Shown here: positions 3,146 to 55,879 of the stretch, one piece after another
How the letters are laid out: each line of letters opens with the position of its first letter
How positions within the stretch are numbered: position 1 is the stretch's first letter
From: an uncultured Coriobacteriia bacterium
GTDB lineage: Bacteria > Actinomycetota > Coriobacteriia > Anaerosomatales > PHET01
Reading direction: 5' to 3'
DNA: 64,000 nt
Assembly: GCA_942493275.1 (NCBI GenBank)
Contig: OW818687.1
Location: 176,743 to 240,742 of the forward strand
Position numbers and translations under genes: made by a program
Notes under the pieces: generated by a model
What the model was told of the DNA's origin: nothing
What the model saw: the letters and a program-made list of their open reading frames with translations, nothing else
Database searches by the model: none

Positions 3146-4273
3146 TTACGCGGTGCGGTCGTGTCGCTTGGCGGTCGCCTGCGCGCCGAAGTGCTCGGAT
3201 GCGCGGCGCGTGGTGAGTACCTCGTCCACCGCCTCGATGAAGCGCTGGTTCTCGTCATGAGTTCCGACGGTCACCCGGAGGCAGTCCTCAAGACCCGGCG
3301 ATCGGGAGAAGTCGCGGATGAGCACCGAGTGTCCATGGAGCAGGTCACGCCACAATGCCGACGCGTGCTCGACTCTGAACAAGACGAAGTTCGCCTCGCT
3401 CGGAAAGACCTCGACTCCGTGTTGCAGTCGAAGGCCGTGCATCAGCTGGTCGCGCCCGCGCAGGATGTCTGAGATGCCCTGCTCGAAGACCATGCGGTCC
3501 TTGAACACCGCGCGTGCGACCCACTGGCTGAACGAGTTCACCGAGTAGGGCTGGCGCACCTTTTTGAGCTCGCTGACAACGTCCGCGTGACCAAGGAGGT
3601 AGCCAACGCGCATGCCAGCCATGGAGAACGCCTTTGAAAACGTCCGCAGAATGACCAGGTTTGGGTGGCGCGCCATGTGCGGGCGCATGGTGTGACGGCT
3701 GAACTCGAAGTACGCCTCGTCCACGAGCACGATCGCGTCCGTCGACTTGAGCAGGTCGATCAGGAAACCCTCGTCAGTCAGGTTGCCTGTCGGGTTGTTG
3801 GGGTTGGCGATCATGACGATGTCGATATCGCCCTCGGCGACTCGCGCGAGCACGGCGTCCTGGTCGATCGAGAAGTCCTCATGCCGAGGGATCCGCACGA
3901 TATCGGTCCCGGTGACTTCGGCATCGATCCCGTACATCGTGAAGGTCGGCGGCATGTCGATGAGCTTACGACCGGGGCCTCCCCACGCGAGCAGCAGGTC
4001 GAAGATGAGCTCGTCGCCGCCGTTGCCGACCAGCACGTTGTCAGCATCGAGGCCGTTGGCCTCGGCGATCATCTCGCGCAGCCGCGTTGCGGTGGGGTCC
4101 GGGTAGCGATTGAAGGCGAACTCCGGCAGGCGTGACGACAGCTTCGCCAACACCTCGCTGGGGAGGTTGTGCGGATGCTCGTTGCTCGCGAGGTTGACCT
4201 CGACCTTCATCTCCTTGGCGTCATACGGCGCCAGTGAGTCGAGTTCGGGCCGAGGTGCGCGAAAGTTGTCCAT
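3146..4273 (-). CDS. hisC: histidinol-phosphate aminotransferase
   Basis: [51 protein letters not shown]. Confidence 0.95.
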
Positions 4274-22919: not shown

Positions 22920-23417
<498 letters not shown>

Positions 23418-23454
23418 GCGGAGCTCCTTATGCACACGGAATCACGGACGTATA

Positions 23455-36394: not shown

Positions 36395-36726
36395 GGTTCA
36401 GGCGCATCAACCGCATCACCGCGGTCGACCGCCACCAGAAGGACCGCAAGTCGGTCACCATCGAGCACGTGATGCACGAGGACTATGACCGGCTCGCGGA
36501 CTCCCACGGCCGGGGCTACCCACGCGGCAAGCGCGTCCTCTCCCGAATCTTCTACGCGTGGCGCCGCGCCATGGGGGCCTTGCTCATCCCCGGAATCCCC
36601 GAGGAACTCGCGTTCACGCCCGTGCGCACGGGTCGAGGGGACCTGTTCAGGCGTCAGGCGCTGTCGTGGAACAAGGCGTGGCCGTACGACTACGTCGATA
36701 GCAGCGACGAGCCCGGAAAGGGCTAA
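35830..36726 (+). CDS. GT2 family glycosyltransferase (copy 2)
   Basis: Same motifs as copy 1; ATGA overlap with copy 1. Confidence 0.92.
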   Translation: MIASEGPLVSILTPSFNQATWLGDNLRSVACQTYPHIEHIVMDGGSTDGSVEILEAADGITWRSEADDGQSDAINKAFAVSTGEIIGWINSDDAYFDCRVIEDVVAFFERHPDVDVVYGHAAQIAEDGTIIWMIWTPPFWRRVLRITNFIGQPVAFIRRRVLDDPMLDRSFHFAMDYELWLRLDAKGARFRRINRITAVDRHQKDRKSVTIEHVMHEDYDRLADSHGRGYPRGKRVLSRIFYAWRRAMGALLIPGIPEELAFTPVRTGRGDLFRRQALSWNKAWPYDYVDSSDEPGKG

Positions 36727-38258
36727 CCGTCGCGCAGTACCCGCTTGCGCCTCCGCCACACGGCGACCGAAGTGATGAGGTCGGCACGCTCGTCCCGGCC
36801 AAGGCCGACGCCGGCGAACGCGAGCCAGTATGCCGCCGCCGAGACACCCGCGCCGATCAGGCACCCGATCAGCGATCCTGACAGCGGCGAGACGACGAGG
36901 GCGCCTGCGACGGCCGCCGGAACCAGCAGCAGCGGGTAGACCGGCAGCACGATCGAACGCAGCGCATCCGACCAGCTGAGTCCCGTTTCCTGCGCGAGGA
37001 ACCGCATGTGGAACGGGAAGTCCACGAGATGGGCCACCGACGTGCCGATGGCCACGCCCAGCACGCCGATCCGGGGGATCAGCAGCGCGCTCAGGCCCAC
37101 GTTGAGCACCGCCTGCATCACGATGTAGGGCACGCGGCGTCCGAGCCGCCCCTTGCTTATGACGATCGAATCCCCGACGAGCCCAAGCGCCATCAGGATG
37201 TGGGGGAAGATGAGTACCCGGGCCACGAGCGCCTGATCGGCGAACTCCTCCCCGAGCCACAGCACGATCACGGGCCCGACGAACACCATCGTCACGACCG
37301 TGATCGGTGCGATGAGGGCGGTCACGTACTTCGTGCCCCGCGTCAGCAGCGAACGCAGCGACGCCTCCCGCCCTTGTGCGCCCATGCTCGAGGCGAGCGG
37401 GAGAACGGCCGAGACCGACATGCCGGAGACGTAGGTGATCAGCGCGTTGAACTTCGACGCGGCCTCGTAGAGCGCAACGGCCGTCCCCCCCATGAACACG
37501 CCGAGCAACAGCCGATCGGTCTGCTGATAGAACAGCAGGTCGGAGAGCTGAACGACGAAGACCGCCCAGCTGAAGGTGAAGATCGAGCGCGCCGAGGCGC
37601 GACCCATGCCCTGGAACCGAACTGACGGGAGACCTGCGAGAATGCGCGAGGCGATCAGGTTCCCCGCCGAAACGACGACCATCACGACGCCGTTCAGCAC
37701 GACGAGCATGAGCGGTCCGGAGCCGGAGACGAGCACGTACCAGGTCGCGCCGATACTCAGCACCGTCGACGCGACACTCGAAGCTGCGAGAACGTCGTAG
37801 CGCTGCAACCCGCCGAGGATGTAGCGCGCCGCCGAAGACGGCCAGTACCACAACTGGAACAGTGCGCCGACCAGCAGCATGTCCTTGAGCAGCTCGGCGT
37901 CGGCAGCCGAGATGTCGAAGATGCGGCCCGCATAGACGCCTACGAGCGCCATGGCGATCGCCGCAACCACGCCGATTCCGGCATAGATAACCGTGGCGGT
38001 CGAAGCGGCCCCCACGAGGGCTGACCGGTCCTTCTTGGCGTGGTGCTCGGCCACGAGTGTCGTGAGTGCGGCGCCGATGCCCAGATCGAGCAGCACCGCG
38101 TAAGCCGACACGGAGGTTGCCAGCATGTAGATGCCGTAGTGCTCGAGCCCGAACGCCTCGATGAGCAGCGGCATGAACACGAGCGACGCAAGCATCGCAA
38201 CGACCTGAGACGAGCCGTTCGCGAGCGTGTTGAGTACGAGCCGCCGCTTCTCGTTCAT
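36723..38258 (-). CDS. wzx: Wzx-type oligosaccharide flippase (MOP family)
   Basis: About 14 TM helices; LGLEHYGIY, LDLGIGAAL, QTDRLLLG..G..AVALYEAA. Confidence 0.85.
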   Translation of the reverse strand: MNEKRRLVLNTLANGSSQVVAMLASLVFMPLLIEAFGLEHYGIYMLATSVSAYAVLLDLGIGAALTTLVAEHHAKKDRSALVGAASTATVIYAGIGVVAAIAMALVGVYAGRIFDISAADAELLKDMLLVGALFQLWYWPSSAARYILGGLQRYDVLAASSVASTVLSIGATWYVLVSGSGPLMLVVLNGVVMVVVSAGNLIASRILAGLPSVRFQGMGRASARSIFTFSWAVFVVQLSDLLFYQQTDRLLLGVFMGGTAVALYEAASKFNALITYVSGMSVSAVLPLASSMGAQGREASLRSLLTRGTKYVTALIAPITVVTMVFVGPVIVLWLGEEFADQALVARVLIFPHILMALGLVGDSIVISKGRLGRRVPYIVMQAVLNVGLSALLIPRIGVLGVAIGTSVAHLVDFPFHMRFLAQETGLSWSDALRSIVLPVYPLLLVPAAVAGALVVSPLSGSLIGCLIGAGVSAAAYWLAFAGVGLGRDERADLITSVAVWRRRKRVLRDG

Positions 38259-38297: not shown

Positions 38298-40512
<2,215 letters not shown>

Positions 40513-40520
<8 letters not shown>

Positions 40521-41148
40521 CGCCGTGAAGCGTGTCATAGACGTGGCCATCTCCGCCGCGGCCCTGCTCCTGCTGAGCCCGGTGCTCGCGGGCATCGCGA
40601 TAGCCGTGCGCGTCAAGCTCGGTGCACCCGTGTTGTTCCAGCAGCCGCGCCCGGGGAGAAACGCCCGCATCTTCACGCTGTATAAGTTCCGCTCGATGCG
40701 TGATCTACCGGCGCACACCACGGCGGTCGACGCCGTGGCAACCGATGCCGAGCGGCTGACGCCTTTCGGCCGGAGACTTCGTTCCACCTCGCTCGACGAG
40801 CTGCCGTCGTTCGTCAACGTACTCAAGGGCGACATGAGCCTCGTCGGCCCACGCCCCCTGCTCCCCGAGTACGTTCCTCGGTACAATGAGGCGCAGGCGA
40901 GAAGGCACGAGGTCCGTCCGGGTATCACGGGATGGGCGCAGGTCAACGGCAGAAACGCCACCAGTTGGGAGGAGCGGTTCGAGATGGACGTGTGGTACGT
41001 CGATCACCGCTCGGTGTGGCTGGACCTGAAGATCGCCTACATGACGATAGCAACTGTCTTTGGCCGCTCGGGAGTCTCCGCGCCGGGTGAGGCCACCATG
41101 GCACCGTTCGACCCGGCAGCGCAGCGAAAGGACGACCACGCATCGTGA
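40513..41148 (+). CDS. initiating phosphoglycosyltransferase (PglC-like, monotopic)
   Basis: KRVIDV, LYKFRSM, LRSTSLDELP, GDMSLVGPRP, RPGITGWAQVNGRN, DVWYV. Confidence 0.92.
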
Positions 41149-41762
41149 AACGGCTACTCATCATCGGCTCGGGTGGTCACGCCAAGGTCGTCACCGCCGC
41201 AGCCGAAGCAGCGGGGTGGTCCATCGCCGGCATCGTCGATGCGACCACCGACCGCACCGAGCTGCTCGGACACCCGATCAGCGCTTCGTGCGACACCGCT
41301 GAAGCGGATGCGTTCATCATCGCGGTCGGAGACAACAGGACGCGTCGGGCCCGTTTCGAGGAGTGGAGCGGCTGTGGACTGGCTGCCGCCACCGTGATTC
41401 ACCCTTCCGCGATCGTGGCTAGCACAGCGTCGATCGGCGCGGGCACGTTCGTCTCGGCGGGCGTGATCGTCAACCCGGATGCGCGCATCGGTGACAACGT
41501 GATCCTCAACACCGGCTGCATCGTGGAACACGACTGCGTCGTCGCCGACCACGCCCACGTGGGCCCCGCCTCGAGCCTGTGCGGAAACGTGTCGGTGGGC
41601 AGCGGCGCGCTCCTCGGTACGGGCGTCAACGCGATTCCCGGTATCAGCATCGGCACGTGGAGCGTGTGCGGAGCCGGTGCCGCGGTGGTCAAGGACATTC
41701 CGGCCGACTGCGTGTGCGCCGGCGTGCCCGCGCGCATCGTACGTGCCGTCGAGGAGCTTTGA
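41145..41762 (+). CDS. sugar N-acetyltransferase (PglD/NeuD-like)
   Basis: IGSGGHAKVV, AVGDNRTR, hexapeptide repeats, EHDC..HV, AGVPAR. Confidence 0.9.
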   Translation: MKRLLIIGSGGHAKVVTAAAEAAGWSIAGIVDATTDRTELLGHPISASCDTAEADAFIIAVGDNRTRRARFEEWSGCGLAAATVIHPSAIVASTASIGAGTFVSAGVIVNPDARIGDNVILNTGCIVEHDCVVADHAHVGPASSLCGNVSVGSGALLGTGVNAIPGISIGTWSVCGAGAAVVKDIPADCVCAGVPARIVRAVEEL

Positions 41763-42985
41763 TGAGGTCGGGACTGTCGATCGACGGCGGCTCGCCGGTG
41801 CGAACCCTCCCCCTCCCCGGATGGCCATCCCCCGGCGACGCGGAGGCGGCGGCGGTCGAGTCGGTCGTGCGATCGGGCCGGCTCAACTACTGGGTCGGTG
41901 ACCAGGGACGCGATCTCGAGGCGTCGTACGCCGAGACACTCGGGCGTGCACACGCGATCGCCGTCGCGAACGGGACTCTGGCGCTCGAGCTCGCGCTTAG
42001 GGCCTTCCTGATCGGGCCCGGTGACGACGTCGTGGTCCCCGCGCGCACGTTCATCGCGACCGCCAGCGCGGTCGTGGCCGTGGGCGCCCGACCGGTGATC
42101 GCCGACATCGACCCGGACTCCGGCAACATGACGGCCACGACGCTCGAAGCCGCGCTTACCCCGGCGACGCGCGCCGTGATACCCGTGCATCTTGGCGGCT
42201 GGCCCGTCGACATGGAGCCGCTGCTCGCGATCGCCCGAAAGCACCGGCTGACGGTCATCGAGGATGCGGCACAGGCCCACGGGGGCCGATATCAGGGCCG
42301 TCCTGTGGGCGGGCTCGGCAGTCACGCGGCGGCGTTCTCCTTCTGCCAGGACAAGATCATCCCCGCGGGCGAAGGCGGCATCCTCGTGCTGGACGACGAC
42401 GATGCCTACCAGCGCGCGTGGGCGTACAAGGATCACGGCAAGTCGCTTGAGAAGGTGACGGCCATGGCTCAGGCGGGCGGCGGATCGACCTCCTACCAGT
42501 GGCTGGTCGACGGGTTTGGCACCAACTGGCGACTCAGCGAGTTGCCGGCCGCTCTCGTCCGTGTCGGACTCGAACGCCTGGACGAGTGGCACGGCGTGCG
42601 GACACGCAACGCCCTGAGCCTCGCCGAAGGCCTTGCCGATGTTCCGGGACTCACGATCCCGCTTCCGCCGGCAGGCACCGAGCACGCCTTCTACCGGCTG
42701 TACGGGCGAATCCGACTCGAGGAGCTGTCGAGCGGGTGGACGCGCGACCGGATCACCTCGGCCATCGGCGCCGAAGGCGTTCCCGTGCAGTACGGCACGT
42801 GCGCCGAGATCTACCGAGAGCGTGCGTTCCTCACAGCGGGACTCGGTCCCGAGACACGGTTGGCCGGCGCGTGCGCCGCTCACGAGAGTTCCATTGCGTT
42901 CTTCGTCCACCCCACGTTGTCGGAGTCAGACATCCAAGACACGGTCACCGCAACCCGCAAGGTGATGGAGGCAGCCACATCGTGA
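41762..42985 (+). CDS. DegT/DnrJ/EryC1/StrS sugar aminotransferase (PglE-like)
   Basis: ANGTLALELAL, PVHLGG, EDAAQAHG, SFCQDKII..GEGG, GTNWRL. Confidence 0.9.
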   Translation: MRSGLSIDGGSPVRTLPLPGWPSPGDAEAAAVESVVRSGRLNYWVGDQGRDLEASYAETLGRAHAIAVANGTLALELALRAFLIGPGDDVVVPARTFIATASAVVAVGARPVIADIDPDSGNMTATTLEAALTPATRAVIPVHLGGWPVDMEPLLAIARKHRLTVIEDAAQAHGGRYQGRPVGGLGSHAAAFSFCQDKIIPAGEGGILVLDDDDAYQRAWAYKDHGKSLEKVTAMAQAGGGSTSYQWLVDGFGTNWRLSELPAALVRVGLERLDEWHGVRTRNALSLAEGLADVPGLTIPLPPAGTEHAFYRLYGRIRLEELSSGWTRDRITSAIGAEGVPVQYGTCAEIYRERAFLTAGLGPETRLAGACAAHESSIAFFVHPTLSESDIQDTVTATRKVMEAATS

Positions 42986-44847
42986 CGCCTACAGAGATGT
43001 TCAGACGCGTTCGGGCCACCGGGCGGCTGTGGAACTCCGCGCTCGTGGTGCTTGATGCGGCGATCGTGGTCATGGCGACGGTCGCGGCCTACTACGCGCG
43101 CTTCGAAGGCGTCGTACCCGACGTGTTCGCCCAGTGGACCATGCCGCTGATGTGGCTCTCGGTGTTCCTCTACGGATCCTTGTTCGCGGCGTTCGGGCTT
43201 TACCGCCTGGTTCTGCGATTTGTCAGCATCGACACGCTCATTCGGCTCTTCGGCGCGACCATCATCGCCGTCTCGGTGCTTCTGGCGATCGATGTCCTAC
43301 TGCCGCAAGAAGCCGGGACGCGCGCCGTCCCGTTCGGCGTGCTGTTCATCCAGGCGGTGCTCGTGTTCCTTGGCGCCGCAGGTATCCGTGTTGCCGCCCG
43401 CATCCTCATCCACATCAGGGCGGCGCGGCCGATTGGACGGCGCGTGTTGATCGTCGGCGCGGGCAATGCCGGCTCCCTGCTTCTGCGTGAAATACAGAAC
43501 CGCCCTGACCTCAACCTGTCCGTGATCTGCTTCCTCGACGACGACCGGCGCCTTACCGGTCGGACCATCAACGGGGTACCGGTCCTGGGCACCACCGACA
43601 AGCTCGCCGAAACGGTAGCCAAGAAGGCGATCCAAGAGGTCATGGTCGCGCTTCCCTCGGCCTCCCAAGACGCCGTGAGAGCCATTCTGAACGCCGCAGC
43701 TGACGCAGACGTGCAGACACGCGTCATGCCCAAGATCGTGGTGGAGACGGGCTCTGTGAGCCTGCGCGACCTGAGGCCGGTCGACGTCGAGGACCTGCTC
43801 GGAAGAGATCCGGCTGCAATCGACATCGAGCAGGTGCGCGAAACGATCACCGGCAAGTCGGTTGCCGTCACCGGAGCGGCGGGCTCGATCGGCTCGGAAC
43901 TGTGCCGCCAGGTCATGCAGCTTGCACCCGCGCGCCTCATACTGATCGAGATCGACGAGAGCCGGCTCTACGAACTGTGGCTCGAGCTGTCACAGATCGA
44001 CCCGGACGTCCCGGTCATGTGCCTGTGCGACATCAGAGACCCGCGAACCTTGGACGCGGCCTTCGAACGCTACCGACCGGAGTTGGTTCTCCACGCCGCG
44101 GCCTATAAGCACGTGCCACTCATCGAGGTTGCCCCCGCCGAGGCGGTCAAGACCAACGTGATGGGAACTCTGCAACTCATGGAGGCATGTGAGAGACACG
44201 GCGTCGCCCGCTTCGTCCTCATATCGACGGACAAGGCGGTCGCGCCCGCCAATATGATGGGCCTGACCAAGTCACTCGCCGAGCGCATCATGCTGGCCGA
44301 GACGCGCGACAACGCACTGCACGCGGTCGCGGTCCGCTTCGGCAACGTCCTCGGAAGCCGCGGCTCCGTGGTGCCGATCTTCGAGGAGCAACTGCGCCAC
44401 GGCGGACCGGTGACCGTCACCGATCCGGAGGTCACGCGCTACTTCATGACGATTCCGGAGGCGGCACGGCTGGTTCTCCAGGCGCAGGCGATCGGTGCAC
44501 CTGGCGACATCTTCGTGCTCGAGATGGGCGAACCGGTGCGAATCGTGGACCTCGCTCGCAAGATGATCGCGCTGTCCGGCGTGCCCGCCGAGGTGCGTTT
44601 CACGGGGCTGAGACCCGGCGAGAAGCTGCACGAGCGCCTCATCACAGAGACCGAGTCGCTCCTCCCCACCCAGTGCGACCGCATCCTCCGAGTCGACCGC
44701 GTTCACGTCCTCGAGCCCGACTTCGATGAAGCCATCGACGCACTCGTGGATGCAGCGATCGTCCTCGACGAGGCGGCGTTGGCGGGTGCAGTGGATCGGC
44801 TCGAGCCCGGCTTCGCGGAGCGCGCCTCCCGAATGGCAGCCGGCTAG
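42982..44847 (+). CDS. membrane-bound UDP-GlcNAc 4,6-dehydratase (PglF/CapD/WbpM-like)
   Basis: Four N-terminal TMs; TGAAGSIGSEL, HAAAYKHVP, STDKAV, RFGNVLGSRGSV, VTRYFMTIPEA, LRPGEKLHE. Confidence 0.93.
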   Translation: MTPTEMFRRVRATGRLWNSALVVLDAAIVVMATVAAYYARFEGVVPDVFAQWTMPLMWLSVFLYGSLFAAFGLYRLVLRFVSIDTLIRLFGATIIAVSVLLAIDVLLPQEAGTRAVPFGVLFIQAVLVFLGAAGIRVAARILIHIRAARPIGRRVLIVGAGNAGSLLLREIQNRPDLNLSVICFLDDDRRLTGRTINGVPVLGTTDKLAETVAKKAIQEVMVALPSASQDAVRAILNAAADADVQTRVMPKIVVETGSVSLRDLRPVDVEDLLGRDPAAIDIEQVRETITGKSVAVTGAAGSIGSELCRQVMQLAPARLILIEIDESRLYELWLELSQIDPDVPVMCLCDIRDPRTLDAAFERYRPELVLHAAAYKHVPLIEVAPAEAVKTNVMGTLQLMEACERHGVARFVLISTDKAVAPANMMGLTKSLAERIMLAETRDNALHAVAVRFGNVLGSRGSVVPIFEEQLRHGGPVTVTDPEVTRYFMTIPEAARLVLQAQAIGAPGDIFVLEMGEPVRIVDLARKMIALSGVPAEVRFTGLRPGEKLHERLITETESLLPTQCDRILRVDRVHVLEPDFDEAIDALVDAAIVLDEAALAGAVDRLEPGFAERASRMAAG

Positions 44848-46679
44848 AAGGTCCCCGAGTCCCGAATCGCCTGCGCCTTCGCCTCGTACTCGGCGGCCTT
44901 CTCGGCGTTCCCTGCTTCACGCCAGTACGTGGCCTCGATGTCGATGGTTGCGATGGTCTCGCCAAGCTCGGCGGCCCTGTCGAGCATCTCGCGAGCACCT
45001 TCCTGGTCACCCTTTGCCAGGCGGTACTGAGCCAGAGCGGCCCACGCGTTGGGCGAGCCCGGTATCAGTTCGGCAGCCCGCGTGAAGGCTTCTTCCACCG
45101 CCTGCGGCTCAGCCTGATAGCCCGCCAGCGTGAGCGCGTACTCCATCGCGTACGCAGGGTTCGAAGGATCGAGTTCGACCGCCCTCTTCGCTGCGACGAG
45201 GTCCGGTTGATCCGCCGCGAGCGTGGGGTCCTCCTGCACCGCAAAGCCCCAGTCCAGCGACGAGCGCCAGTACAGGAACGGGTCAAAACCCCATGCGTCC
45301 GCAAGCGCCGTGGTCGTGCGAGCGTCGGCGAAGGTCGGCTCGTCCACCCGCGCGAGCACGAACCGGGTGAGACCGGACATGCCCAGGACCAGAGCGACAA
45401 GACTCGCGAACACCGTGACGGCAACCCGAGCGCCCCTGGAGCTGCCGACAGCCGACGCTTCCCCATGCGGTTTCGGCACCCGCAATGATGCGCCGAGCAC
45501 CAGTGCCGCAATCGGCAGGGACTGGAGCGCGGCGGGGGCGATGAGGCACAGAGCGCCATAGAGCACGATTCCCTGGACGAAGGGCTCGACGTCACCAAAG
45601 GAACCCGCCTTGGCCTGATGCACCCAGTTGCGCACGACCTCGAACGCAACCCAGCCGGCGAGGGCCAGTCCCACGACTCCGGTCGAGACCAGGATCCAGA
45701 CGAGCGCGTTGTGCGGGTCAGCGCTCACGCCTGCGAGCGCGTACGGCCCCCATATGTGATCGCCCGTGACGACCTGCCACGCCCCTGAAACGTAGCCGTC
45801 CGGTCCCCACCCCTGAACGGGTCGCATCAGGAATCCGAGCCAGCCGTCGTAGGCGAGCGTGTAACGTTCGGTCACGAACTCGGTAGCAGCCGTCCTCAGC
45901 GGGCTGAGCAGCAACCCGGCAAACGCTACGACCCACAGTCCTACGCCGAGGGCCACGGTGGTCAGCTTCGACCAGCCCGCGCGCAACAGCGCACGTGCCC
46001 CCTCGAAGGTGAGCCACAGGAGCAAGAAGGCCGTCGCTGCAAGTGCGTATCCACCGAGCAGGGCAACGAACACGGCCGCCACGAGCGTCGCGCGCCACAG
46101 CAGCGGGCGATCACGCAGGGACATCAGAGCAATCGGGAGCAGCAGGACCAGCACCTGCCCCAGGATGGTGGAGTTCGAAGTGGAGCCCGACACGTGAACG
46201 CGGGCAGAGAGCTCGTAGACCGCCGCAAGGACTTCGACGATGACGATGGCCAGGGCCGCCGTGCCCAGCAGCTTCCGACCCTGTGCACCCATCTCCACAC
46301 CCGAGATCACCACGAAACCAACCGCGGCCAGCGTCACCCAACCGATGTGACTGCCGTAGACACCGAAGAGCCCGCGCGCCAGCGACGGCGCGGTTACGGT
46401 ACCGATCACGGCCCACGCAAGCCATCCGGTCCACGCCCACATGAGCGGCCAGCGTACATAGGCGCCCAGTACGTCTTCGCGCGGCAGGAACACCAGACCC
46501 GTCGCAACAGCGGCTGCCAGCGCGATGACGGGCCAGTCGGTGGCTTGGCTCGCGCCGAACGGCACGAAGCCGACGAACAACGCCGCGGCGGCTATCGAGA
46601 CAAGAGCAATCGCGTATGGGCGATGCTGCTCCATCTCGACCCTGACCTTTGCTGCCTGCGCCTTCTTCTTAGCCACCAC
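44844..46679 (-). CDS. O-antigen ligase (Wzy_C) family protein with C-terminal TPR repeats; candidate O-oligosaccharyltransferase
   Basis: RPVQGWGPDGY...DPHNALV; TPR-like AVELDPSNPAY..AAELIPGSPNAW. Confidence 0.8.
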   Translation of the reverse strand: MVAKKKAQAAKVRVEMEQHRPYAIALVSIAAAALFVGFVPFGASQATDWPVIALAAAVATGLVFLPREDVLGAYVRWPLMWAWTGWLAWAVIGTVTAPSLARGLFGVYGSHIGWVTLAAVGFVVISGVEMGAQGRKLLGTAALAIVIVEVLAAVYELSARVHVSGSTSNSTILGQVLVLLLPIALMSLRDRPLLWRATLVAAVFVALLGGYALAATAFLLLWLTFEGARALLRAGWSKLTTVALGVGLWVVAFAGLLLSPLRTAATEFVTERYTLAYDGWLGFLMRPVQGWGPDGYVSGAWQVVTGDHIWGPYALAGVSADPHNALVWILVSTGVVGLALAGWVAFEVVRNWVHQAKAGSFGDVEPFVQGIVLYGALCLIAPAALQSLPIAALVLGASLRVPKPHGEASAVGSSRGARVAVTVFASLVALVLGMSGLTRFVLARVDEPTFADARTTTALADAWGFDPFLYWRSSLDWGFAVQEDPTLAADQPDLVAAKRAVELDPSNPAYAMEYALTLAGYQAEPQAVEEAFTRAAELIPGSPNAWAALAQYRLAKGDQEGAREMLDRAAELGETIATIDIEATYWREAGNAEKAAEYEAKAQAIRDSGTF

Positions 46680-46724: not shown

Positions 46725-48749
46725 TCACTGCGCGGTCGCGCTCTCAACCAGGGAGCGAAGGTTCGCGACTCCCTGATCGCGGTCGGTGAACCGCTCCACC
46801 AGCAGGCCGGACACAACGGATGCGTCCTGCGTACGCCCCACTTCCAACAGCAACTCGCCGTAGAGAACGCCCGGGTACACCTGGGTGGGATCGATGTCCC
46901 ACCAGTCTTCGAGCGCGGTTATCGCCTCGGCGGTACGACCCGCGTTTGAGAGCGCAAGCGCGGCCTCGACGCGGGCAGCCAAGCCGGTCGGCGACGTCGT
47001 GTAGGCCGCAATCGCCAGATCGGCCGCTTCAGGCAGATACGACGGCCCTCCGACCAGCGCCGCCTTGTTCAGGAACGCGGCAAACGCCGTCTGCGCCTCA
47101 TATGACCGAGGGACGAAATCCAGGTATTCCCGATACGATGCGCGCGCAGCCTCGATTCCGGAAAGGTCGCCGGCCGACGCCATCGCCAAGGCGACTTCGG
47201 CCCGGGACTCGGCGAGCCGAGCCCGATAGCGCGTCTGCCACGGCGCAAGCGAGACTGCTGTCTCAGCATGCGACAGAGCCTCGGAGGGTCCCTGCGCCGC
47301 GTACGAACGAAGCAGCGCAGCATCGGCGGCCCACACTCTACCCGCAAAGACCAGCAGCCCGACGGCCGAGATGACGGCGATGCCCATCAATGAAGCGCGC
47401 AGCACCTTTGACAGCTCAACCGTGCGACACAGCGGAGCGCACACGACGCCCAGACCGACCCACAGCAGTGTGGAGCTTGCCACACTGGTGACACCCAGCA
47501 TCAGGAACGCGAGATAGGCAACGACGGCAGCCAGGAACGCCGCCGACGGCAGGCCCTCGGCGGATGTGGTCGCGCTCTTCGCGAACCAGCGCCATCCGCG
47601 CCACGCTACGTAGCCAAACCAGCCCACGAGCAGAATCGCCGCAGGGATGCCCAAGGTGGCAGCGAGGGTGAGCGGGTAGTTGTGCGCGTCCTGGGTGTAG
47701 GCGGCGAACCCTGAGGACGCAACGTCCTCCACGCTCCTGACCGGCCACCAACCTAGAAGGTAGGTGTCCGGACCCGTTCCGAGAATCGGACGCTGCGCGA
47801 TCATCGCCGCGGTGTCTTGCCAGATCAGAAGCCGCGAGTTGGACGCCGCCACGAACGCGTCCAGGCCGGCTACCCCGACCCGTCGGAGGGTGGCACCGCC
47901 AGTCGCGCTCACGCTCCACGCGAACGCAAGGGCGACCACCACCGCAGCGGCGATCCACACGATGCGGGCGCTCCCTCGCGGGACCTTCCCCGCCAACCGC
48001 GCCGAATAGGCCAGGAGCGCCAATCCGACGACCGCGGCGATCCAGGCGCCTCTGACGGCACTGACCGTGAGTGCGGCGAGTACCACCCCGGTGCAGACCC
48101 ACCACACCCACCGGCGCTCGATCTTCGTGTCGCTCAGCGCCAGTCCTCCCCCTGCGAGCAGCGGAAACAGCAGATATCCGCCCAGCATGTCGGGGTTGCC
48201 GATCGTCCCCAGCCCTCGCTCCAGCATCCACTCCGGCACCGCGGACCATGCCGCAGCATCGAGTCCCGCCGACTGCATCAGGCCGTAGATCGCCACAATC
48301 ACGCCGGGAATCGTAACGGCCATGAGCAGACGGCGGACCATACCCGTCGACCGCACCAGCTGAATCGTAGCCAGGAACAGGAGCAGCCACGCTGCCCATG
48401 ACACGAGCCCGCTGCGATACTCTTCACTGCCGAACAGCGCCGTGGGAACGTGGAGCCCGAAGATGGTCGACACGACGGCCAGCAACGCGAATGCGAGCAA
48501 CGGCCACGCGAGAGACTTCGGGAGCACTCTCGCCTTCGCAGGGCGAGACCACGCAAGGGCCGCGAGGACCAGCGCGGTGCCTGCGCACAGCACCGCAAGC
48601 TTGGGCGTCTGGAACACGTCGTAGGTGAGCAAGCCCCCTCCGAGGCTTGCCAGGTTAGTCATGGCCAACGGAACGATTGCGACCAGCGCCACCAGAATCC
48701 ATCCGGCAACGCTCGTCGCGCGCTCCTGATTCGCGAGCGGGCTCCCCAT
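46725..48749 (-). CDS. O-antigen ligase (Wzy_C) family protein with C-terminal TPR-like domain; candidate O-oligosaccharyltransferase
   Basis: GTIGNPDMLGGYL, RLLIWQDTAAMIAQRPILGTGPDTY, DAHNYPL; N-terminal YDVFQTPK; start at 48749. Confidence 0.85.
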   Translation of the reverse strand: MGSPLANQERATSVAGWILVALVAIVPLAMTNLASLGGGLLTYDVFQTPKLAVLCAGTALVLAALAWSRPAKARVLPKSLAWPLLAFALLAVVSTIFGLHVPTALFGSEEYRSGLVSWAAWLLLFLATIQLVRSTGMVRRLLMAVTIPGVIVAIYGLMQSAGLDAAAWSAVPEWMLERGLGTIGNPDMLGGYLLFPLLAGGGLALSDTKIERRWVWWVCTGVVLAALTVSAVRGAWIAAVVGLALLAYSARLAGKVPRGSARIVWIAAAVVVALAFAWSVSATGGATLRRVGVAGLDAFVAASNSRLLIWQDTAAMIAQRPILGTGPDTYLLGWWPVRSVEDVASSGFAAYTQDAHNYPLTLAATLGIPAAILLVGWFGYVAWRGWRWFAKSATTSAEGLPSAAFLAAVVAYLAFLMLGVTSVASSTLLWVGLGVVCAPLCRTVELSKVLRASLMGIAVISAVGLLVFAGRVWAADAALLRSYAAQGPSEALSHAETAVSLAPWQTRYRARLAESRAEVALAMASAGDLSGIEAARASYREYLDFVPRSYEAQTAFAAFLNKAALVGGPSYLPEAADLAIAAYTTSPTGLAARVEAALALSNAGRTAEAITALEDWWDIDPTQVYPGVLYGELLLEVGRTQDASVVSGLLVERFTDRDQGVANLRSLVESATAQ

Positions 48750-48786
48750 CAACGCATCCCCTTCATCCACCCGCCGAGAGAGCGCC

Positions 48787-49968
48787 TTACGGAAGGGCGC
48801 CCGGCGGCCGCGTGTCATGGCAGACCGTGCACCACGGCTGCTCCTTGTCGTACCTCAGCTTCTCGTGACACGCGCACGACGACGCGAAACTCCGGTTCAC
48901 ACCATGCCCCTGAATCCAGATAGTCGAGTGCGCGAGGAACGGCTCGTGACACTCCCCGCAGTCATTGTGGTCCTGGTAGTGACACTTGCCGCAACGCTTG
49001 CCCCCGTTTGACCACAGATCGACGGTCGCCTCTCGCGCGTGACCGGTCGCCTTGAACTGGTCTGAGTGAGGCAAACGAAGTCCGTGGCAGGAGTCGCACT
49101 CGCTCTGGTCCGAGTGACACCCATCGCACTTGGGATTCGAGACGAGGCGGGTGCCGCCGTTCTTTGGCTTCGCGCGGTCGGCTCTGACCGCGCCCGCCGG
49201 ATCGCCGATGTGGCACACGCTGCACTCGATCGACGCGATCTCGCCGTCATGACACCTCGTGCACGGCGCCATCCCGGCCACGTGGTCGGAGACCACGCCA
49301 CCATCAAGACGATGGCAGTCAATGCACTCGGCGCCAGCCTCAAGCGGCTCCTTGTGGGAGACTTTGAGTGAGCGATCCGTGACGGTCGCCGTACCGGTGA
49401 TCTGCTGCCGGTGACACGACGCGCACCCCTGCGAAGAGACCACGCCTGACAGGCCCTTGGTGTCACCCTGAAGCCCGGCGACGATGTGCACCGCCCGACC
49501 GGGGACGTCCGTGAAGATCCTGCCGATGTAGGTGCCGGTCTCATGACACGACACGCAGTCGGCCTTCTTGTGGGGATCTTTCTTGTCAGCCTGGACGTGC
49601 GCGGTGCGCACGTGACAACTGCTGCACAGCTCGTTAGTGGAGGACGCGACTCCGACCGCCACGTAGACGGCCATGAGCGCAAACACCCAAAAGGCGACCG
49701 AGTAGACCCAGCCGCGGGGATTGCGCGGTTCCGGCTCCTTTGCTGTCTCCTGGGGCACTGGAATGCTCTCAGCGGCCTCCCCGCCCTCCTCCGACTCTTC
49801 GCCGGAGCCCGTGAGCAGCAAGATGGCGGCGACCATGACGATCAGCAGCAGCAGGCTGGCGACCACCAGCAGCAGGATGGCAGCGGTCAGGTTGGTCGCG
49901 GGCTCCTGGATGATCTCGCGAAGCACGTTGGGCAGTGCAGCCCAGTCGTAGTTGAGGAGTGCCTCCAT
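48787..49968 (-). CDS. membrane-anchored multiheme cytochrome c, NapC/NirT-like N-terminus, 11 CxxCH plus one CxCH
   Basis: Two TM helices, then CSSCH, CVSCH, CASCH, CIDCH, CTRCH, CSVCH, CDGCH, CDSCH, CGKCH, CGECH, (CACH), CTVCH. Confidence 0.9.
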   Translation of the reverse strand: MEALLNYDWAALPNVLREIIQEPATNLTAAILLLVVASLLLLIVMVAAILLLTGSGEESEEGGEAAESIPVPQETAKEPEPRNPRGWVYSVAFWVFALMAVYVAVGVASSTNELCSSCHVRTAHVQADKKDPHKKADCVSCHETGTYIGRIFTDVPGRAVHIVAGLQGDTKGLSGVVSSQGCASCHRQQITGTATVTDRSLKVSHKEPLEAGAECIDCHRLDGGVVSDHVAGMAPCTRCHDGEIASIECSVCHIGDPAGAVRADRAKPKNGGTRLVSNPKCDGCHSDQSECDSCHGLRLPHSDQFKATGHAREATVDLWSNGGKRCGKCHYQDHNDCGECHEPFLAHSTIWIQGHGVNRSFASSCACHEKLRYDKEQPWCTVCHDTRPPGALP

Positions 49969-50942
49969 CAGGGCGTCACCTCCACGCCCTGTTCGATGGT
50001 GCTGTTGTTCATGGGGCCGGTGCCGCCGGGATGTGCATGGTACTCGTGGCAGTCCAGACAGTCCCGGATAGCATGGCATCGCAGGCACGCAGGATCCTGA
50101 TAGCCCTTGGTCTTCTGGGGGTGCTCGTCGATGAAGTCGCGCGGATGCGGAACCTCAACCTGATGACAGTCGCTGCAGAACTTCTTGGGGTGGCAGGATT
50201 CGCAGTCGGCATCAGCCTGCAACGAGACCGCGCCGTGCTGCGCAAGGAACTGCACGTCGTGCGGCACCCCAGCGCCGTGACAGCGGCTGCAGTAATCATC
50301 CGGGTGGCAACTCACGCACGTACGCGTGTCTCCCATGCCGTGCGCCTGCTCCCAGTTCTTCCCATGCGTGACGCGCCAGGCGCCTTGGGAGAGTCTGTCT
50401 TTGGTGAGCTTGCCGTTGTGGCACGTGTCGCATTCGACAGGCCCGTTGTTGTCTTCGTGACAGGCGATGCACGCCTGCATCTCGGGCTCTCGCGCCCAAG
50501 CAACCTCCGAGCCGTGCGCGGTCCCCGAATGACACTCCGTGCACTGGCCCACCGCCGCGCAGCTCTTGTGGTTGATCCGCAGCCCCGCTGTGTCAGTGGG
50601 CGCACTCATGACCTGCTCGTGACAGCTCAGGCATGCCTCACGAGGAACCGCCGATGAGAAGCGCCCGGACGTCTCTGTCACGCGAAGCCACATCGCGAAC
50701 ACCTGTTGCCCGGCGAATCGCGAACGGGCGGCGACGCCGGACTGGCCATGGCACGCCACACACTCGATTGAGGCGTGAGCTGAACCTTTGGTAGCCGCGA
50801 CAAAGGACTCCGACGAGTGGCAGGACTCACAGCCGGGTTGGGCCACGTACGCGGTTGCGTATACCGACGCGAAGGCGACAGCGACGACGAGGAACGTCGC
50901 GACCACAACGAACGCGATCAGGGCTGGTCTCTTGCTCTGCAC
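49968..50942 (-). CDS. membrane-anchored dodecaheme cytochrome c, NapC/NirT-like N-terminus
   Basis: One TM, then CESCH, CVACH, CLSCH, CTECH, CIACH, CDTCH, CVSCH, CSRCH, CESCH, CSDCH, CLRCH, CLDCH; GTG start after GAGAGG preferred over the ATG at 50987. Confidence 0.9.
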   Translation of the reverse strand: MQSKRPALIAFVVVATFLVVAVAFASVYATAYVAQPGCESCHSSESFVAATKGSAHASIECVACHGQSGVAARSRFAGQQVFAMWLRVTETSGRFSSAVPREACLSCHEQVMSAPTDTAGLRINHKSCAAVGQCTECHSGTAHGSEVAWAREPEMQACIACHEDNNGPVECDTCHNGKLTKDRLSQGAWRVTHGKNWEQAHGMGDTRTCVSCHPDDYCSRCHGAGVPHDVQFLAQHGAVSLQADADCESCHPKKFCSDCHQVEVPHPRDFIDEHPQKTKGYQDPACLRCHAIRDCLDCHEYHAHPGGTGPMNNSTIEQGVEVTP

Positions 50943-50980
50943 GGGGCCTCTCGGGGTCGGGTTAACGCTGCATTGCATCA

Positions 50981-50998
50981 ATGCCATATTCGTGCCAA
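50981..50998 (-). promoter_or_regulatory. sigma54-type -24/-12 promoter
   Basis: TTGGCACGAATATGGCAT = GG-N10-GC; one mismatch to TGGCACG-N4-TTGCW. Confidence 0.6.
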
Positions 50999-51054: not shown

Positions 51055-51093
51055 AAAAAAGGAATCGGGCCGGTCCCCTGAGGGACCGGCCCG
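51055..51093 (-). terminator. intrinsic terminator after the secreted cytochrome gene
   Basis: Perfect 12-bp stem CGGGCCGGTCCC-TCAG-GGGACCGGCCCG (51093-51066) followed after 5 nt by TTTTTT on the minus strand. Confidence 0.85.
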
Positions 51094-51127
51094 AAGACCG
51101 TCTTACGGCTAGCTCACGAAGAGTGAA

Positions 51128-52165
51128 CTAGTAGGACTGACCAACACCGGAACCGGTGCCGTCACGGTGGCACTTGAGGCAGACGCCATCAGACAGCGTC
51201 TTGCTCACAGCGTTGCCGTAGGTCAGCGGCACTGCAGGCTCGGCACCAACAGCGACCGTGGTCGACTGGGTGGTGTTCTCCGAGGACTGAGCGGAAGCGC
51301 CAGGCGTGGTCAGGGCTGCGCCAGCGTCGGCGGCAACCATGAGGAAGCGAGGAGCCTCGGGGGTGTAGTGCGGGAACGAGTAGCCGTCGCCGTCAACAGC
51401 CCAGCGCTCTTCAGCGTCGTGGCAGCTCTTGCACGTGGCGGACGACTTGAACGCGATCGGCAGACCGGTCTTGGTGGCACCGGAGCCGGCACCGTTCCAC
51501 GACGCGGTGTTGGCGCGCATCGGGTGAGTCTTGTTGGTGGCATAGCCAGCGCCACCAGCCGGCAGGCCGGCGATGTTGACACCAGTCGAGCTGGTGGCAA
51601 CGTAGTACGAGTTGTGGCAACCGCCACGGGCACAAGTCAGCGCAACGGCGTCATCGTAGCTCGCGGTAGCGGCAGTGTCGCCCTGGGCGATCGTGCCGGT
51701 GAAGGTGCCAGCGGTGTTCGGGAGCTTCAGGATCAGCGAAGCAGCGCCGACGCCGGTGAACGTGCCAGCACCGTGGACCGAGTGGCAGTTGCCACAGGTC
51801 GAGGTGTGGTGGGCGTTCGAGTCGAGCGTCAGGTAGGCGGGGTTCTCGCCATAGACCTGCGAGTACACGCTGGTCGCGCTCACGTGGCAGTAGTTGCACG
51901 AGTCGCTGACCGAGGTCTTGAGGAGGATCTCACCAGTGCTCGAGGCCTGGTGGACCGCGTGGCAAACAGCACACTTAACGGTGGTCGTGGTGTAGTTGCC
52001 GTGCGGCGAGGTATCCGTGCCGTTCAGTGCGGTGCTCCACGCGATGTAGGAGCCAGCGGTCGAACCGGCGTTGGTGACGAACGAGCCCTTGTCGGCGAAC
52101 GCCGGAGCGGCGATGGCCATGAGAGCGATCGCGGCGACAACCGCGATGAACAGCATCTTCTTCAT
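51128..52165 (-). CDS. secreted multiheme cytochrome c (5 CxxCH plus 1 CX4CH); OmcS-like filament candidate
   Basis: Sec signal MKKMLFIAVVAAIALMAIAAPAFA|D after AAGGAG; CAVCHAVH, CNYCH, CGNCHSVH, CARGGCH, CKSCH, CLKCH; no lipobox, TM anchor or LPxTG. Confidence 0.88.
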   Translation of the reverse strand: MKKMLFIAVVAAIALMAIAAPAFADKGSFVTNAGSTAGSYIAWSTALNGTDTSPHGNYTTTTVKCAVCHAVHQASSTGEILLKTSVSDSCNYCHVSATSVYSQVYGENPAYLTLDSNAHHTSTCGNCHSVHGAGTFTGVGAASLILKLPNTAGTFTGTIAQGDTAATASYDDAVALTCARGGCHNSYYVATSSTGVNIAGLPAGGAGYATNKTHPMRANTASWNGAGSGATKTGLPIAFKSSATCKSCHDAEERWAVDGDGYSFPHYTPEAPRFLMVAADAGAALTTPGASAQSSENTTQSTTVAVGAEPAVPLTYGNAVSKTLSDGVCLKCHRDGTGSGVGQSY

Positions 52166-52266
52166 GAATTTCTCCTTGTTATATGCAGTGTTCGTATTCA
52201 TCTCTTTAACAACACCTCCTTTCCGAGATGGGGTCCCTGACCGGGGGCCAGGGTCTTGCGACTCAA

Positions 52267-52345: not shown

Positions 52346-53629
52346 TCAGGGGGTCTCCTCCACCGCAACGTCAATCGGCGCTGTTGCTGCGGCGGCAGCC
52401 TCAGCACGGCGCTGCTTACGCCGCTTCATCCAGCGCGAAACCACCCATGCGACGATAAGCGCGAGGAGCAGGATCAGAGGGAAGAGGAGCGCTCTCAGCG
52501 GACCGGCGAGCGTGCTTCGCAGGAAGGTGACCGGAGTGCCGCCGGAGTCCGGCAGGCGCACGATCTGGATGCGATCGTTGTAGGTGTCTGCGACCGCAAA
52601 CCAGTCACGCGCGGGATCGTAGGCGATTCCGGAGGGGTACACGAACTCGCCGTCCGTGGTGCCGTAGGTACCGTACTCGGCGATGATCTTGCCATCCTCG
52701 GGATCGAGAACGGTGAGCTCGAAATCGAACGGATCTGCGACGACCGGACGGTTGTTGCCATCCACGGTGATGCCCGACGGCAGAATCATCGTGCCGGCCC
52801 CGCCAGCCTGCTCGGCCGCCATGTTGCCGCCGAGATTCGCCTGGTTGGACGGCTTACCCATCTCCCTGATCCACTTCCTGTCACCGTCAGTGGTGTAGGC
52901 GCTCACCCGGTTGTTGTGACGGTCCGTCACGTAGATGGTGCCGTCGGGCGCGATCGCCACGCCGTACACGACGTCGAACTGGTCGTCGTCCTTGCCCTTC
53001 GACCCGATCAGCTTGATGAGGTTGCCATCCGCGTCAAGGATCACAAAGCCCGCGTCGGCACCGACGACGATGCGGTCATCTGAGACGGCAACCGCGATCG
53101 GCTTCTCCACATTGATCTGCTCAGAGAGGTTGTTGTCGGCGTCGCTGATGATCACGGCGTTCTTCTTCTTGTCAGCGATGTAGATCCGGCCGTCCTCGGC
53201 AACGGCCACCGCGGTCGGCGAGCCGTAAGCATTGGGCGACATTCCCGCAGGACCGTGGTGCAACAGCGCGCTGAAGGTTCCATCGGGGTTGAAGCCCATG
53301 ACGCGCGCCTTGATTCCCTCGGGAACCCAGATAACGCCATCGGGGCCGATGCCGACGCCATACGGCTGTTGGAGCTGGTTGTCCGCGATCTTCCCGTAGC
53401 CATAGATGGAGCGGACCCATACCATCCCGCCCCCGGAATCGCTCGGGGCCCCACCCACGGGGCGAAGCAGCGAGATCACGAATGCGGAAACGCCCATGAG
53501 CAGGAGCACCAGGATGATCAGGACCACGATCAGGACGCGACGCGCCCGCGAGTTCTTGACTTCTTTGGATTCGGCCTTCGGCTGCGCCGCCGAATCCGCG
53601 AGGGCTGCTGTGTCGGTAGTGTCGGTCAT
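52346..53629 (-). CDS. NHL-repeat (six-bladed beta-propeller) protein with N- and C-terminal TM anchors
   Basis: QPYGVGIGPDG, SPTAVAVAEDGRIYIAD, FDVVYGVAIAPDGTIYVTD, PSGITVD, FVYPSGIAYD; hydrophobic ends followed by KRRKQRR. Confidence 0.88.
   Translation of the reverse strand: MTDTTDTAALADSAAQPKAESKEVKNSRARRVLIVVLIILVLLLMGVSAFVISLLRPVGGAPSDSGGGMVWVRSIYGYGKIADNQLQQPYGVGIGPDGVIWVPEGIKARVMGFNPDGTFSALLHHGPAGMSPNAYGSPTAVAVAEDGRIYIADKKKNAVIISDADNNLSEQINVEKPIAVAVSDDRIVVGADAGFVILDADGNLIKLIGSKGKDDDQFDVVYGVAIAPDGTIYVTDRHNNRVSAYTTDGDRKWIREMGKPSNQANLGGNMAAEQAGGAGTMILPSGITVDGNNRPVVADPFDFELTVLDPEDGKIIAEYGTYGTTDGEFVYPSGIAYDPARDWFAVADTYNDRIQIVRLPDSGGTPVTFLRSTLAGPLRALLFPLILLLALIVAWVVSRWMKRRKQRRAEAAAAATAPIDVAVEETP

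Positions 53630-54604: not shown

Positions 54605-55879
<1,275 letters not shown>

Follow-up and report, generated by a model that had tools for sequence, protein, structure and literature searches.

A predicted secreted hexaheme cytochrome of an uncultured Coriobacteriia bacterium as a candidate actinobacterial counterpart of Thermincola CwcA

The stretch of DNA analysed here (the window, 64,000 nucleotides of contig OW818687.1 from an uncultured Coriobacteriia bacterium) carries on its minus strand a gene for a c-type cytochrome with six heme motifs, referred to below as the hexaheme protein. The gene lies in a minus-strand series that runs from a TPR protein and an NHL propeller through the hexaheme protein to a 12-heme and an 11-heme cytochrome, followed by two polytopic TPR-domain proteins. 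The first five of these genes form a module that is conserved in Actinomycetota/Coriobacteriia. Judged from its sequence, the hexaheme protein is a predicted actinobacterial counterpart of CwcA (Tfer_0075/TherJR_1122), the hexaheme cytochrome assigned to the cell wall in Thermincola ferriacetica and T. potens (Bacillota). It is also distantly related to OmcS (GSU2504, PDB 6EF8), the hexaheme nanowire subunit of Geobacter sulfurreducens. Its probable role is to conduct electrons across the Gram-positive wall, possibly in the form of a polymer.

The open reading frame (ORF) comprises 345 codons and a stop, giving a precursor of 345 amino acids and a mature protein of 321. Its G+C content at third codon positions (GC3) is 0.82, against 0.54 for the overlapping shadow ORF on the plus strand, so the minus strand is the one that encodes the gene. 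An alternative in-frame ATG at 52201 would merely extend the n-region of the signal peptide, and the mature protein is identical whichever of the two starts (52165 or 52201) is used. The in-frame peptide upstream of the ATG at 52165 (52166-52207, minus strand), KEMNTNTAYNKEKF, resembles the MKEM.../MNEM... N-terminal extensions called in many homologs, and the ATG at 52201 is preceded by AGGAGG, 13 nt upstream; either this ATG is the real start, or a conserved leader or ribosome-binding region has been misread as protein. The intergenic region upstream of the gene contains no match to a sigma-70 promoter, and an Rfam scan of the whole window returned no match.

The signal peptide, MKKMLFIAVVAAIALMAIAAPAFA, is followed by DKG after the cleavage site and contains no lipobox. 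The mature protein has no membrane segment (highest 19-residue Kyte-Doolittle mean 1.14) and no C-terminal sorting signal. LPNTA (residues 148-152), the sole LPXTG-like string, was rejected as a sortase signal, being internal, unconserved and without a hydrophobic tail after it. Sequence and hydropathy thus bear out what the first-pass annotation had described, a cleavable Sec signal and a 321-residue mature protein with no membrane or wall anchor. Serine, threonine, alanine and glycine make up 50% of the mature residues.

A motif scan places CxxCH at residues 65, 90, 124, 245 and 329 and a CX4CH at 178-184. The protein has 13 histidines in all, and seven of them lie outside the motifs (55, 72, 119, 120, 131, 214 and 266). 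These are the numbers that the earlier reading had given (five CxxCH, one CX4CH and seven further histidines), and six of the seven prove invariant or nearly so in the family. Across 114 homologs the six heme motifs and His55, 72, 120, 131, 214 and 266 are either invariant or at least 90% conserved; the layout is far beyond chance, and these homologs share only 31-69% identity. A conserved candidate distal histidine is therefore predicted for each of the six hemes, in keeping with the earlier statement that the histidines suffice for all-bis-His ligation, and the hexaheme protein is probably secreted, anchorless and all-bis-His. At heme 4 most family members have an ordinary CxxCH, and the two-residue insertion that makes it CX4CH is confined to a subclade. 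At heme 3 the CxxCHxxHG of the hexaheme protein recurs in OmcS (CSSCHDPHG) and in CwcA (CGSCHDPHAG). His72 is invariant in the 114 family members and in the 36 OmcS-family rows of a merged alignment. The order of N-terminal motifs had been read correctly, but the spacing of about 17 residues assigned to the approach to LL is in fact the whole gap from H72 to C90; CxxCHxxH (65-72) is followed by 8 residues, LL (81-82), 7 residues and CxxCH (90-94).

Pfam sees generic multiheme modules only in the hexaheme protein (PF09699, PF14522 and PF14537), with scores above gathering for Cytochrome_C7 (29 bits, cut-off 24.8), Cytochrom_c3_2 (28.1, cut-off 25) and Paired_CXXCH_1 (21.9, cut-off 20.6). A phmmer search of PDB sequences with the single sequence gave no significant match. 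When a profile of 40 family sequences is used instead, OmcS (6ef8) is the top PDB match (E 7.4e-7), in an alignment that keeps the order of hemes 1-2 and 3-4; it scores 31.9 bits, and OcwA (6i5b) and MtrA (6r2q) score 30.2 and 30.1 bits through the same N-terminal module. The pattern H..CxxCHxxH..LL..CxxCH, which the first-pass annotation took as a sign of OmcS, was rejected as such a signature: it is the widespread doubled-CXXCH unit of the generic Paired_CXXCH_1 module, with which OcwA and MtrA score about as well. In the permissive, global mode of hhalign, the six hemes of the family and of OmcS fall in the same order. OmcS-family sequences score 38.5±4.7 bits against the hidden Markov model of the hexaheme family, compared with 13-17±8 bits for shuffles in which cysteines and histidines were held fixed, which argues for a signal beyond the heme motifs.

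CwcA supplies the bridge between the two families. The T. ferriacetica locus was found through ImdcA, and CwcA (L080:15959-17020) was identified there by its N- and C-termini, which match the published primers. Without its signal peptide, the hexaheme family aligns to mature CwcA over 201 columns with hemes 1-5 collinear (hhalign Prob 98.0, E 2e-13), and the OmcS family aligns to CwcA with Prob 97.6 and E 4.7e-12; because both profiles match it, at 98.0% and 97.6%, CwcA joins the actinobacterial family to that of OmcS. By BLASTP the hexaheme protein matches CwcA at 3e-9 with about 24% identity, in an alignment confined to the signal peptide and the N-terminal region. When both families are merged in a MAFFT alignment of 150 rows, it keeps the six motifs and His72, 120, 131 and 214 invariant or near-invariant, and sets His72 on OmcS His16 and His249 on OmcS His332. 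In the OmcS filament, His16 reportedly ligates heme 5 (His332) of the neighbouring subunit (Wang et al. 2019). These alignments place the hexaheme protein in one superfamily with CwcA and, via CwcA, with OmcS.

An exhaustive search of a library of 50%-identity cluster representatives yields 282 family representatives at E<=1e-30 and 1067 at E<=1e-10. In some relatives (P0415, P0425, P0436, P0438, P0453, P0458 and P0473) the hexaheme module is the C-terminal domain of proteins of 730-1574 amino acids, which also carry bacterial Ig-like (Big_13) and extra heme domains and in one case subtilase S8 and MAM domains. One may speculate that these long proteins are specialised tip, cap or anchor subunits.

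A scan of one genome per species gave 103 encoding loci, 77 of which were kept, nearly all from metagenome-assembled genomes (MAGs) of Actinomycetota/Coriobacteriia. The hexaheme gene is accompanied by the NHL gene in at least 64 of the 77 loci, the TPR gene in 56, the 12-heme gene in 49 and the 11-heme gene in 47, with a Wzy_C protein within 10 kb in 22, all of these being lower bounds since contig ends truncate many of the loci. In many related genomes the position of the five-gene module is precisely between leuC and leuD (L001, L003, L014, L025, L029, L030, L039, L041 and L056); in four others (L012, L018, L038 and L046) leuC adjoins leuD and the module comes after both. LeuC of the window is 80-94% identical to LeuC of related Actinomycetota/Coriobacteriia MAGs, which together with the shared position between leuC and leuD supports an actinobacterial, Coriobacteriia-like origin as well as vertical inheritance. 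In the window itself leuD (22920-23435) and leuC (54605-55879) are 31 kb apart, with the cytochrome module and a glycan island between them. Two or three tandem hexaheme copies occur at six loci (L022, L040, L060, L062, L073 and L074), and the window's own genome encodes a second copy (P0056, 34% identity) outside the window; such paralogs recall omcS, omcT, oscC and omcJ of Geobacter.

One locus (L025) is that of Coriobacteriaceae sp. EMTCatB1, a dominant member of a thermophilic electromethanogenic biocathode. The published order of its genes is 1d0119 (serA), 1d0120 (leuA), 1d0121 (leuC), 1d0123 (TPR), 1d0124 (hypothetical), then the multiheme cytochromes 1d0125, 1d0126 and 1d0127, and 1d0128 (leuD). 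This order agrees with L025, and 1d0125 is therefore the hexaheme ortholog. Its transcripts average about 10,917 transcripts per million (TPM) on the working biocathode and about 3,900-4,300 TPM in two other conditions, and the authors of the EMTCatB1 study list it among the highly expressed cytochromes. On the working cathode the TPR gene (1d0123) stands at 100 TPM, the NHL gene (1d0124) at 86, the 12-heme gene (1d0126) at 270 and the 11-heme gene (1d0127) at 152, and 1d0125 transcripts are about 40-125 times those of these operon partners. A 40- to 125-fold excess of subunits would fit a structural polymer, by analogy with pilin-type major subunits.

The coordinates of the gene, its motifs and its neighbours are collected in the table. 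The NHL protein has a hydrophobic segment near each end (residues 26-61 and 372-403). The likely start of the 11-heme gene, the ATG at 49968, overlaps the stop of the 12-heme gene (TGATG, 49966-49970), which suggests translational coupling; the GTG at 50088 given in the ORF listing is probably too far upstream. Between the hexaheme and 12-heme genes stands the hairpin at 51055..51094, whose stem is followed by a T-tract. Strong hairpins (<= -20 kcal/mol) follow the homologous gene in 50 of 61 related loci, compared with 10 of 61 in-gene controls. A strict rule of hairpin plus T-run finds terminators there in just 5 of 61, so that most relatives carry a hairpin without a clear U-tract.

Table. 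Features of the hexaheme gene and its surroundings in the window
Feature	Position	Strand	Basis or remark
Hexaheme c-type cytochrome gene, predicted OmcS/CwcA-superfamily member	51128..52165	minus	Translation, motifs, family alignment, hhalign against CwcA
Ribosome-binding site AAGGAG	52172..52177	minus	6 nt between its end and the ATG at 52165
Sec signal peptide, residues 1-24, cleaved after AFA	52094..52165	minus	A-F-A before the mature N-terminus conserved in the family
Heme 1 motif C65-A-V-C68-H69	51959..51973	minus	Invariant; aligned to OmcS C9/C12/H13
His72 codon, second His of CxxCHxxH	51950..51952	minus	Aligned to OmcS His16
Heme 2 motif C90-N-Y-C93-H94	51884..51898	minus	Motif scan, conservation, merged alignment
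Heme 3 motif C124-G-N-C127-H128	51782..51796	minus	Followed by H131-G
Heme 4 motif C178-ARGG-C183-H184 (CX4CH)	51614..51634	minus	Motif scan
Heme 5 motif C245-K-S-C248-H249	51419..51433	minus	Aligned to OmcS C328/C331/H332
Heme 6 motif C329-L-K-C332-H333	51167..51181	minus	12 residues before the C-terminus
Intrinsic-terminator-like hairpin, 13-bp stem with 11 G-C pairs, then TTCCTTTTTT	51055..51094	minus	34 nt past the stop
Membrane-anchored TPR protein, 283 aa	53630..54481	minus	Pfam TPR; hydrophobic stretch 52-85
NHL-repeat beta-propeller, 427 aa, directly upstream of the hexaheme gene	52346..53629	minus	Pfam NHL 6.6e-17
12-heme cytochrome with N-terminal membrane anchor, NrfH/NapC-like; ImdcA/PdcA homolog	49968..50987	minus	12 CxxCH; weak NrfH match
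11-heme NapC/NirT-type membrane cytochrome	48787..49968	minus	Pfam, motif scan
Polytopic Wzy_C protein (O-antigen-ligase/O-oligosaccharyltransferase-type) with C-terminal TPR	46725..48818	minus	Pfam Wzy_C 1e-15 and TPR
Second polytopic membrane protein with C-terminal TPR	44844..46679	minus	Faint TfpM O-oligosaccharyltransferase match
pglC/pglD/pglE/pglF-like genes (Bac_transf, PglD_N with hexapeptide, DegT aminotransferase, PseB/CapD-like dehydratase)	40441..44847	plus	

A glycan island of about 25 kb (23496-48818) adjoins the module. Besides the genes tabulated it holds a Wzx-like flippase (36723-38258), GT1, GT2 and GT4 glycosyltransferases, a polysaccharide deacetylase and a radical-SAM protein. 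It looks like a protein O-glycosylation-type pathway, and it parallels the glycosylation genes beside omcE and omcS in Geobacter. GC3 in the genes of the island and the module ranges over 0.73-0.88, mostly below 0.83, compared with 0.92-0.93 in leuC and serA. An ORF of 551 codons in the island (26627-28282, minus strand) has good coding statistics and no Pfam match at E<=1e-4. A second Wzy_C membrane protein (13798-15636, minus strand) is remote from the main island, between a gene of the fumarylacetoacetate-hydrolase family and a leuA/cimA-like gene.

On balance we lean towards the view that the hexaheme protein is an exported, anchorless subunit of a Gram-positive extracellular-electron-transfer module and stacks into a heme chain that crosses the wall. 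The 12- and 11-heme membrane cytochromes would be in electron exchange with the menaquinone pool on the outer side of the membrane, handing electrons along their heme chains to the hexaheme protein, which, present in large excess, would stack head-to-tail into a continuous heme chain across the peptidoglycan and maybe beyond it. Each subunit would supply His72 to complete heme 5 (His249) in the one that follows, the part presumably played by His16 and His332 in OmcS. Nucleation, anchoring or shaping of the polymer would fall to the TPR and NHL proteins, which would replace the outer-membrane barrel of diderms. The Wzy_C/TPR proteins together with the pgl-like genes may glycosylate this Ser/Thr/Ala/Gly-rich subunit. 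Electrons could flow outward, to Fe(III) or anodes, or inward from cathodes. We infer the localisation and polymerisation of the hexaheme protein and the roles of TPR and NHL from the sequences and their context, and for polymerisation in particular the chances appear roughly even.

Several points weigh against a polymer of the OmcS kind. Direct similarity to OmcS is weak and partly driven by the heme motifs. OcwA and MtrA are nearly level with OmcS by profile score. With signal peptides kept, hhalign of the hexaheme family against the OmcS family gives Prob 98.2; without them it gives Prob 90.7 and E 1.3e-6 over only 36 columns, with rival non-collinear alignments at 80% and 72%. Pairwise BLASTP between OmcS-family sequences and members of the hexaheme family yields just short, often non-collinear matches to heme motifs and nothing convincing. 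Of the likeness to OmcS proposed in the first-pass annotation, what holds is the collinearity of six hemes, the bridge through CwcA and the gene context; what does not carry the argument is the N-terminal motif pattern, and the direct evidence of homology is weak. At heme 5 the histidine pattern differs, with no CxxCHxxH and a family-specific FPH (His266) instead, and since the mature protein lacks 86 residues relative to the length of OmcS, it need not preserve the interface of the latter. Several OmcS paralogs are not known to form filaments. The CwcA polymer itself is a homology model only (PMC7911101). Finally, six hemes with six conserved histidines suit a closed monomer and a polymer equally.

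This last point is where the main rival to the polymer begins. The hexaheme protein could be a monomeric cytochrome of the surface or wall zone, docked on the membrane-anchored NHL protein, the TPR protein or both, and acting as a relay in the manner of terminal reductases such as OcwA or MtrC. The six conserved distal histidines can satisfy six hemes in cis, and NHL and TPR are protein-protein interaction folds, here membrane-anchored and tightly linked to the gene; in Desulfovibrio ferrophilus, NHL propellers have been proposed to stabilise outer cytochrome complexes (PMC5815863). We nevertheless consider such docking unlikely, if well worth keeping in view. Transcripts of the ortholog at about 40-125 times those of the putative docking partners are a poor fit to a 1:1 complex, the homology to CwcA and OmcS comes with conserved equivalents of His16 and heme 5, and a single six-heme monomer would be unlikely to span a Gram-positive wall.

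A freely soluble shuttle, secreted to diffuse between the membrane cytochromes and external acceptors, would explain the cleavable signal peptide, the missing anchor and the very high expression of the ortholog; a high transcript level also suits an abundant soluble carrier, which counts against the polymer. The shuttle is nonetheless quite improbable: without an outer membrane, a protein as expensive as one with six hemes would escape into the medium, CwcA, the nearest relative to have been characterised, did not stay soluble, and the close and conserved association with genes for membrane-anchored TPR and NHL proteins favours a localised structure. That the protein is instead an enzyme, a multiheme reductase for nitrite, sulfite or hydroxylamine, is hardly credible, as a weak Pfam match to Cytochrom_C552 (E 0.026, below cut-off) and the nitrite-reduction genes of EMTCatB1 are set against the lack of CxxCK or any other open-site motif, a conserved candidate distal histidine for every heme, no significant structure match to NrfA or HAO beyond single heme motifs, and a gene context formed by an electron-transfer module with homology to the Thermincola pathway.

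The subunit that stacks into a wall-crossing chain is thus the reading we carry forward. In its most ambitious form, which we offer tentatively and with somewhat less than even confidence, the module would encode the first actinobacterial cytochrome nanowire: a highly expressed, possibly O-glycosylated hexaheme polymer, assembled by TPR and NHL proteins without an outer membrane, connecting the menaquinone pool to minerals, electrodes or partner cells, and passed on vertically within the leucine operon in a Coriobacteriia-like lineage that is widespread in the subsurface. The earlier statement that no example had been described in the lineage was too strong, since an OmcS homolog from Coriobacteriales was reported in 2020 (PMC7399161) and a wire of the OmcS kind through a Gram-positive wall, the CwcA polymer, was proposed in 2021 (PMC7911101). 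The hexaheme protein is better described as a well-supported addition to a known, experimentally unproven type. What is new is the sequence bridge to OmcS through CwcA, the TPR-NHL-hexaheme triad conserved across two phyla, with an NHL gene also beside omcS, the position of the module in the leu operon and the hairpin after the gene, and the recognition that the published biocathode transcript data for EMTCatB1 1d0125 are those of the hexaheme ortholog.

How Gram-positive cells pass electrons across a thick, non-conductive wall is unsettled, and the sole molecular proposal is the homology model of a CwcA polymer. The combination of TPR, NHL and hexaheme proteins with ImdcA/PdcA-like cytochromes is now seen to be conserved in a second phylum, where dozens of Coriobacteriia-like genomes recovered from aquifers, sediments and bioelectrochemical reactors carry it. 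On a working biocathode the hexaheme ortholog ranks with the most abundant transcripts. The module is small and well delimited, has no outer-membrane components, and would allow the existence of cytochrome wires in monoderms to be probed; it offers a route to the roles of TPR and NHL proteins in nanowire assembly, which are not settled for OmcS and OmcE either, and its genes are candidates for making protein wires in a heterologous host. Should the protein be monomeric, the module would still be a good metagenome marker for electron-exchanging Actinomycetota.

Among known systems is that of the 'S27 BJP Coriobacteriales' MAG from an anode biofilm, which encodes a hexaheme OmcS homolog with six CxxCH and 28% BLASTP identity to OmcS (Arbour et al. 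2020, PMC7399161). The genome is actinobacterial, as in the window family, has many multiheme cytochromes and was enriched on an electrode. Unlike the S27 BJP protein, the window family gives no such pairwise match to OmcS, and the S27 BJP homolog may belong to another clade. Published accounts of multiheme clusters in cultured Anaerosomatales offer no nanowire interpretation, and neither literature searches nor a 2026 review yielded a structure of a cytochrome filament from an actinobacterial or other Gram-positive source.

The OmcE-type and archaeal tetraheme nanowires (PcECN and AvECN) resemble the window in that a small secreted cytochrome is encoded with two larger multiheme cytochromes and propellers. 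They rely on inter-subunit His-heme ligation, and their genes often lie beside glycosylation and TPR genes. The hexaheme protein differs from OmcE, PcECN and AvECN in having six hemes rather than four, and the bacterial OmcE clusters carry an outer-membrane beta-barrel; no sequence similarity was detected between OmcE (7tfs) and the family profile (13.7 bits, E 0.27). In published descriptions, omcE and omcS clusters contain two multiheme cytochromes, beta-propellers, the filament subunit and a large beta-barrel, often with glycosyltransferases and TPR genes after them (10.1101/2025.10.22.684050; osc operon, PMC13194489). Set against that list, the window holds every component except the barrel, for which a monoderm would have no use. 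The osc-type companions of omcS include a propeller, the channel-like OscEFG and the prolyl-isomerase chaperone OscH. Among the window ORFs scanned there was no YncE-type propeller (OscD), nor any gene of the barrel-like, spermine-synthase-like or PPIase kind; a monoderm would not be expected to have an outer-membrane channel.

With OmcS the hexaheme protein shares six bis-His-type heme sites, their linear order and a predicted extracellular location. As in the window, an NHL-type propeller is encoded directly upstream of omcS, and this Geobacter gene (315 amino acids) matches the window NHL protein by BLASTP at 6e-7. The YncE-type propeller OscD of Geobacter was considered as the counterpart and rejected, having no similarity to the window NHL protein (E 0.18). 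A membrane glycosyltransferase with TPR domains is also near both genes, of the PMT_2+TPR kind in Geobacter and Wzy_C+TPR in the window.

The closest parallel is Thermincola, like the host of the window presumably a Gram-positive monoderm. The hexaheme protein and CwcA have in common a Sec signal, a mature length of about 320-330 amino acids, six heme motifs in the same order, the N-terminal pattern HG[DN][FY]...CAxCHxxH...LL...CxYCH and a CxxCHxxH(A)G at heme 3. CwcA comes from another phylum, its heme 5 has the OmcS-like CLTCHRAHG in place of the CKSCHDA and family-specific FPH histidine found here, and heme 4 of the window protein is a CX4CH. In the window the hexaheme gene precedes those of the membrane cytochromes, in Thermincola it follows them, and the module is embedded here in a leu operon next to a glycan island. 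CwcA was modelled on OmcS at 18% identity and proposed as a polymer across the peptidoglycan in which heme 5 is ligated by a histidine of the next subunit; the recombinant protein was insoluble (Faustino et al. 2021, PMC7911101). The likeness extends to the surrounding genes. The 12- and 11-heme membrane cytochromes of the window resemble ImdcA and PdcA of Thermincola, and BLASTP matches the 12-heme protein to ImdcA at 2e-14 and to PdcA at 2.5e-13, the TPR protein to the Thermincola TPR protein at 1e-10 over its full length and the NHL protein to the Thermincola NHL protein at 2e-10. The Thermincola locus (L080) reads ImdcA, two multiheme cytochromes, TPR, NHL and CwcA, and the triad of TPR, NHL and hexaheme protein is common to it and the window.

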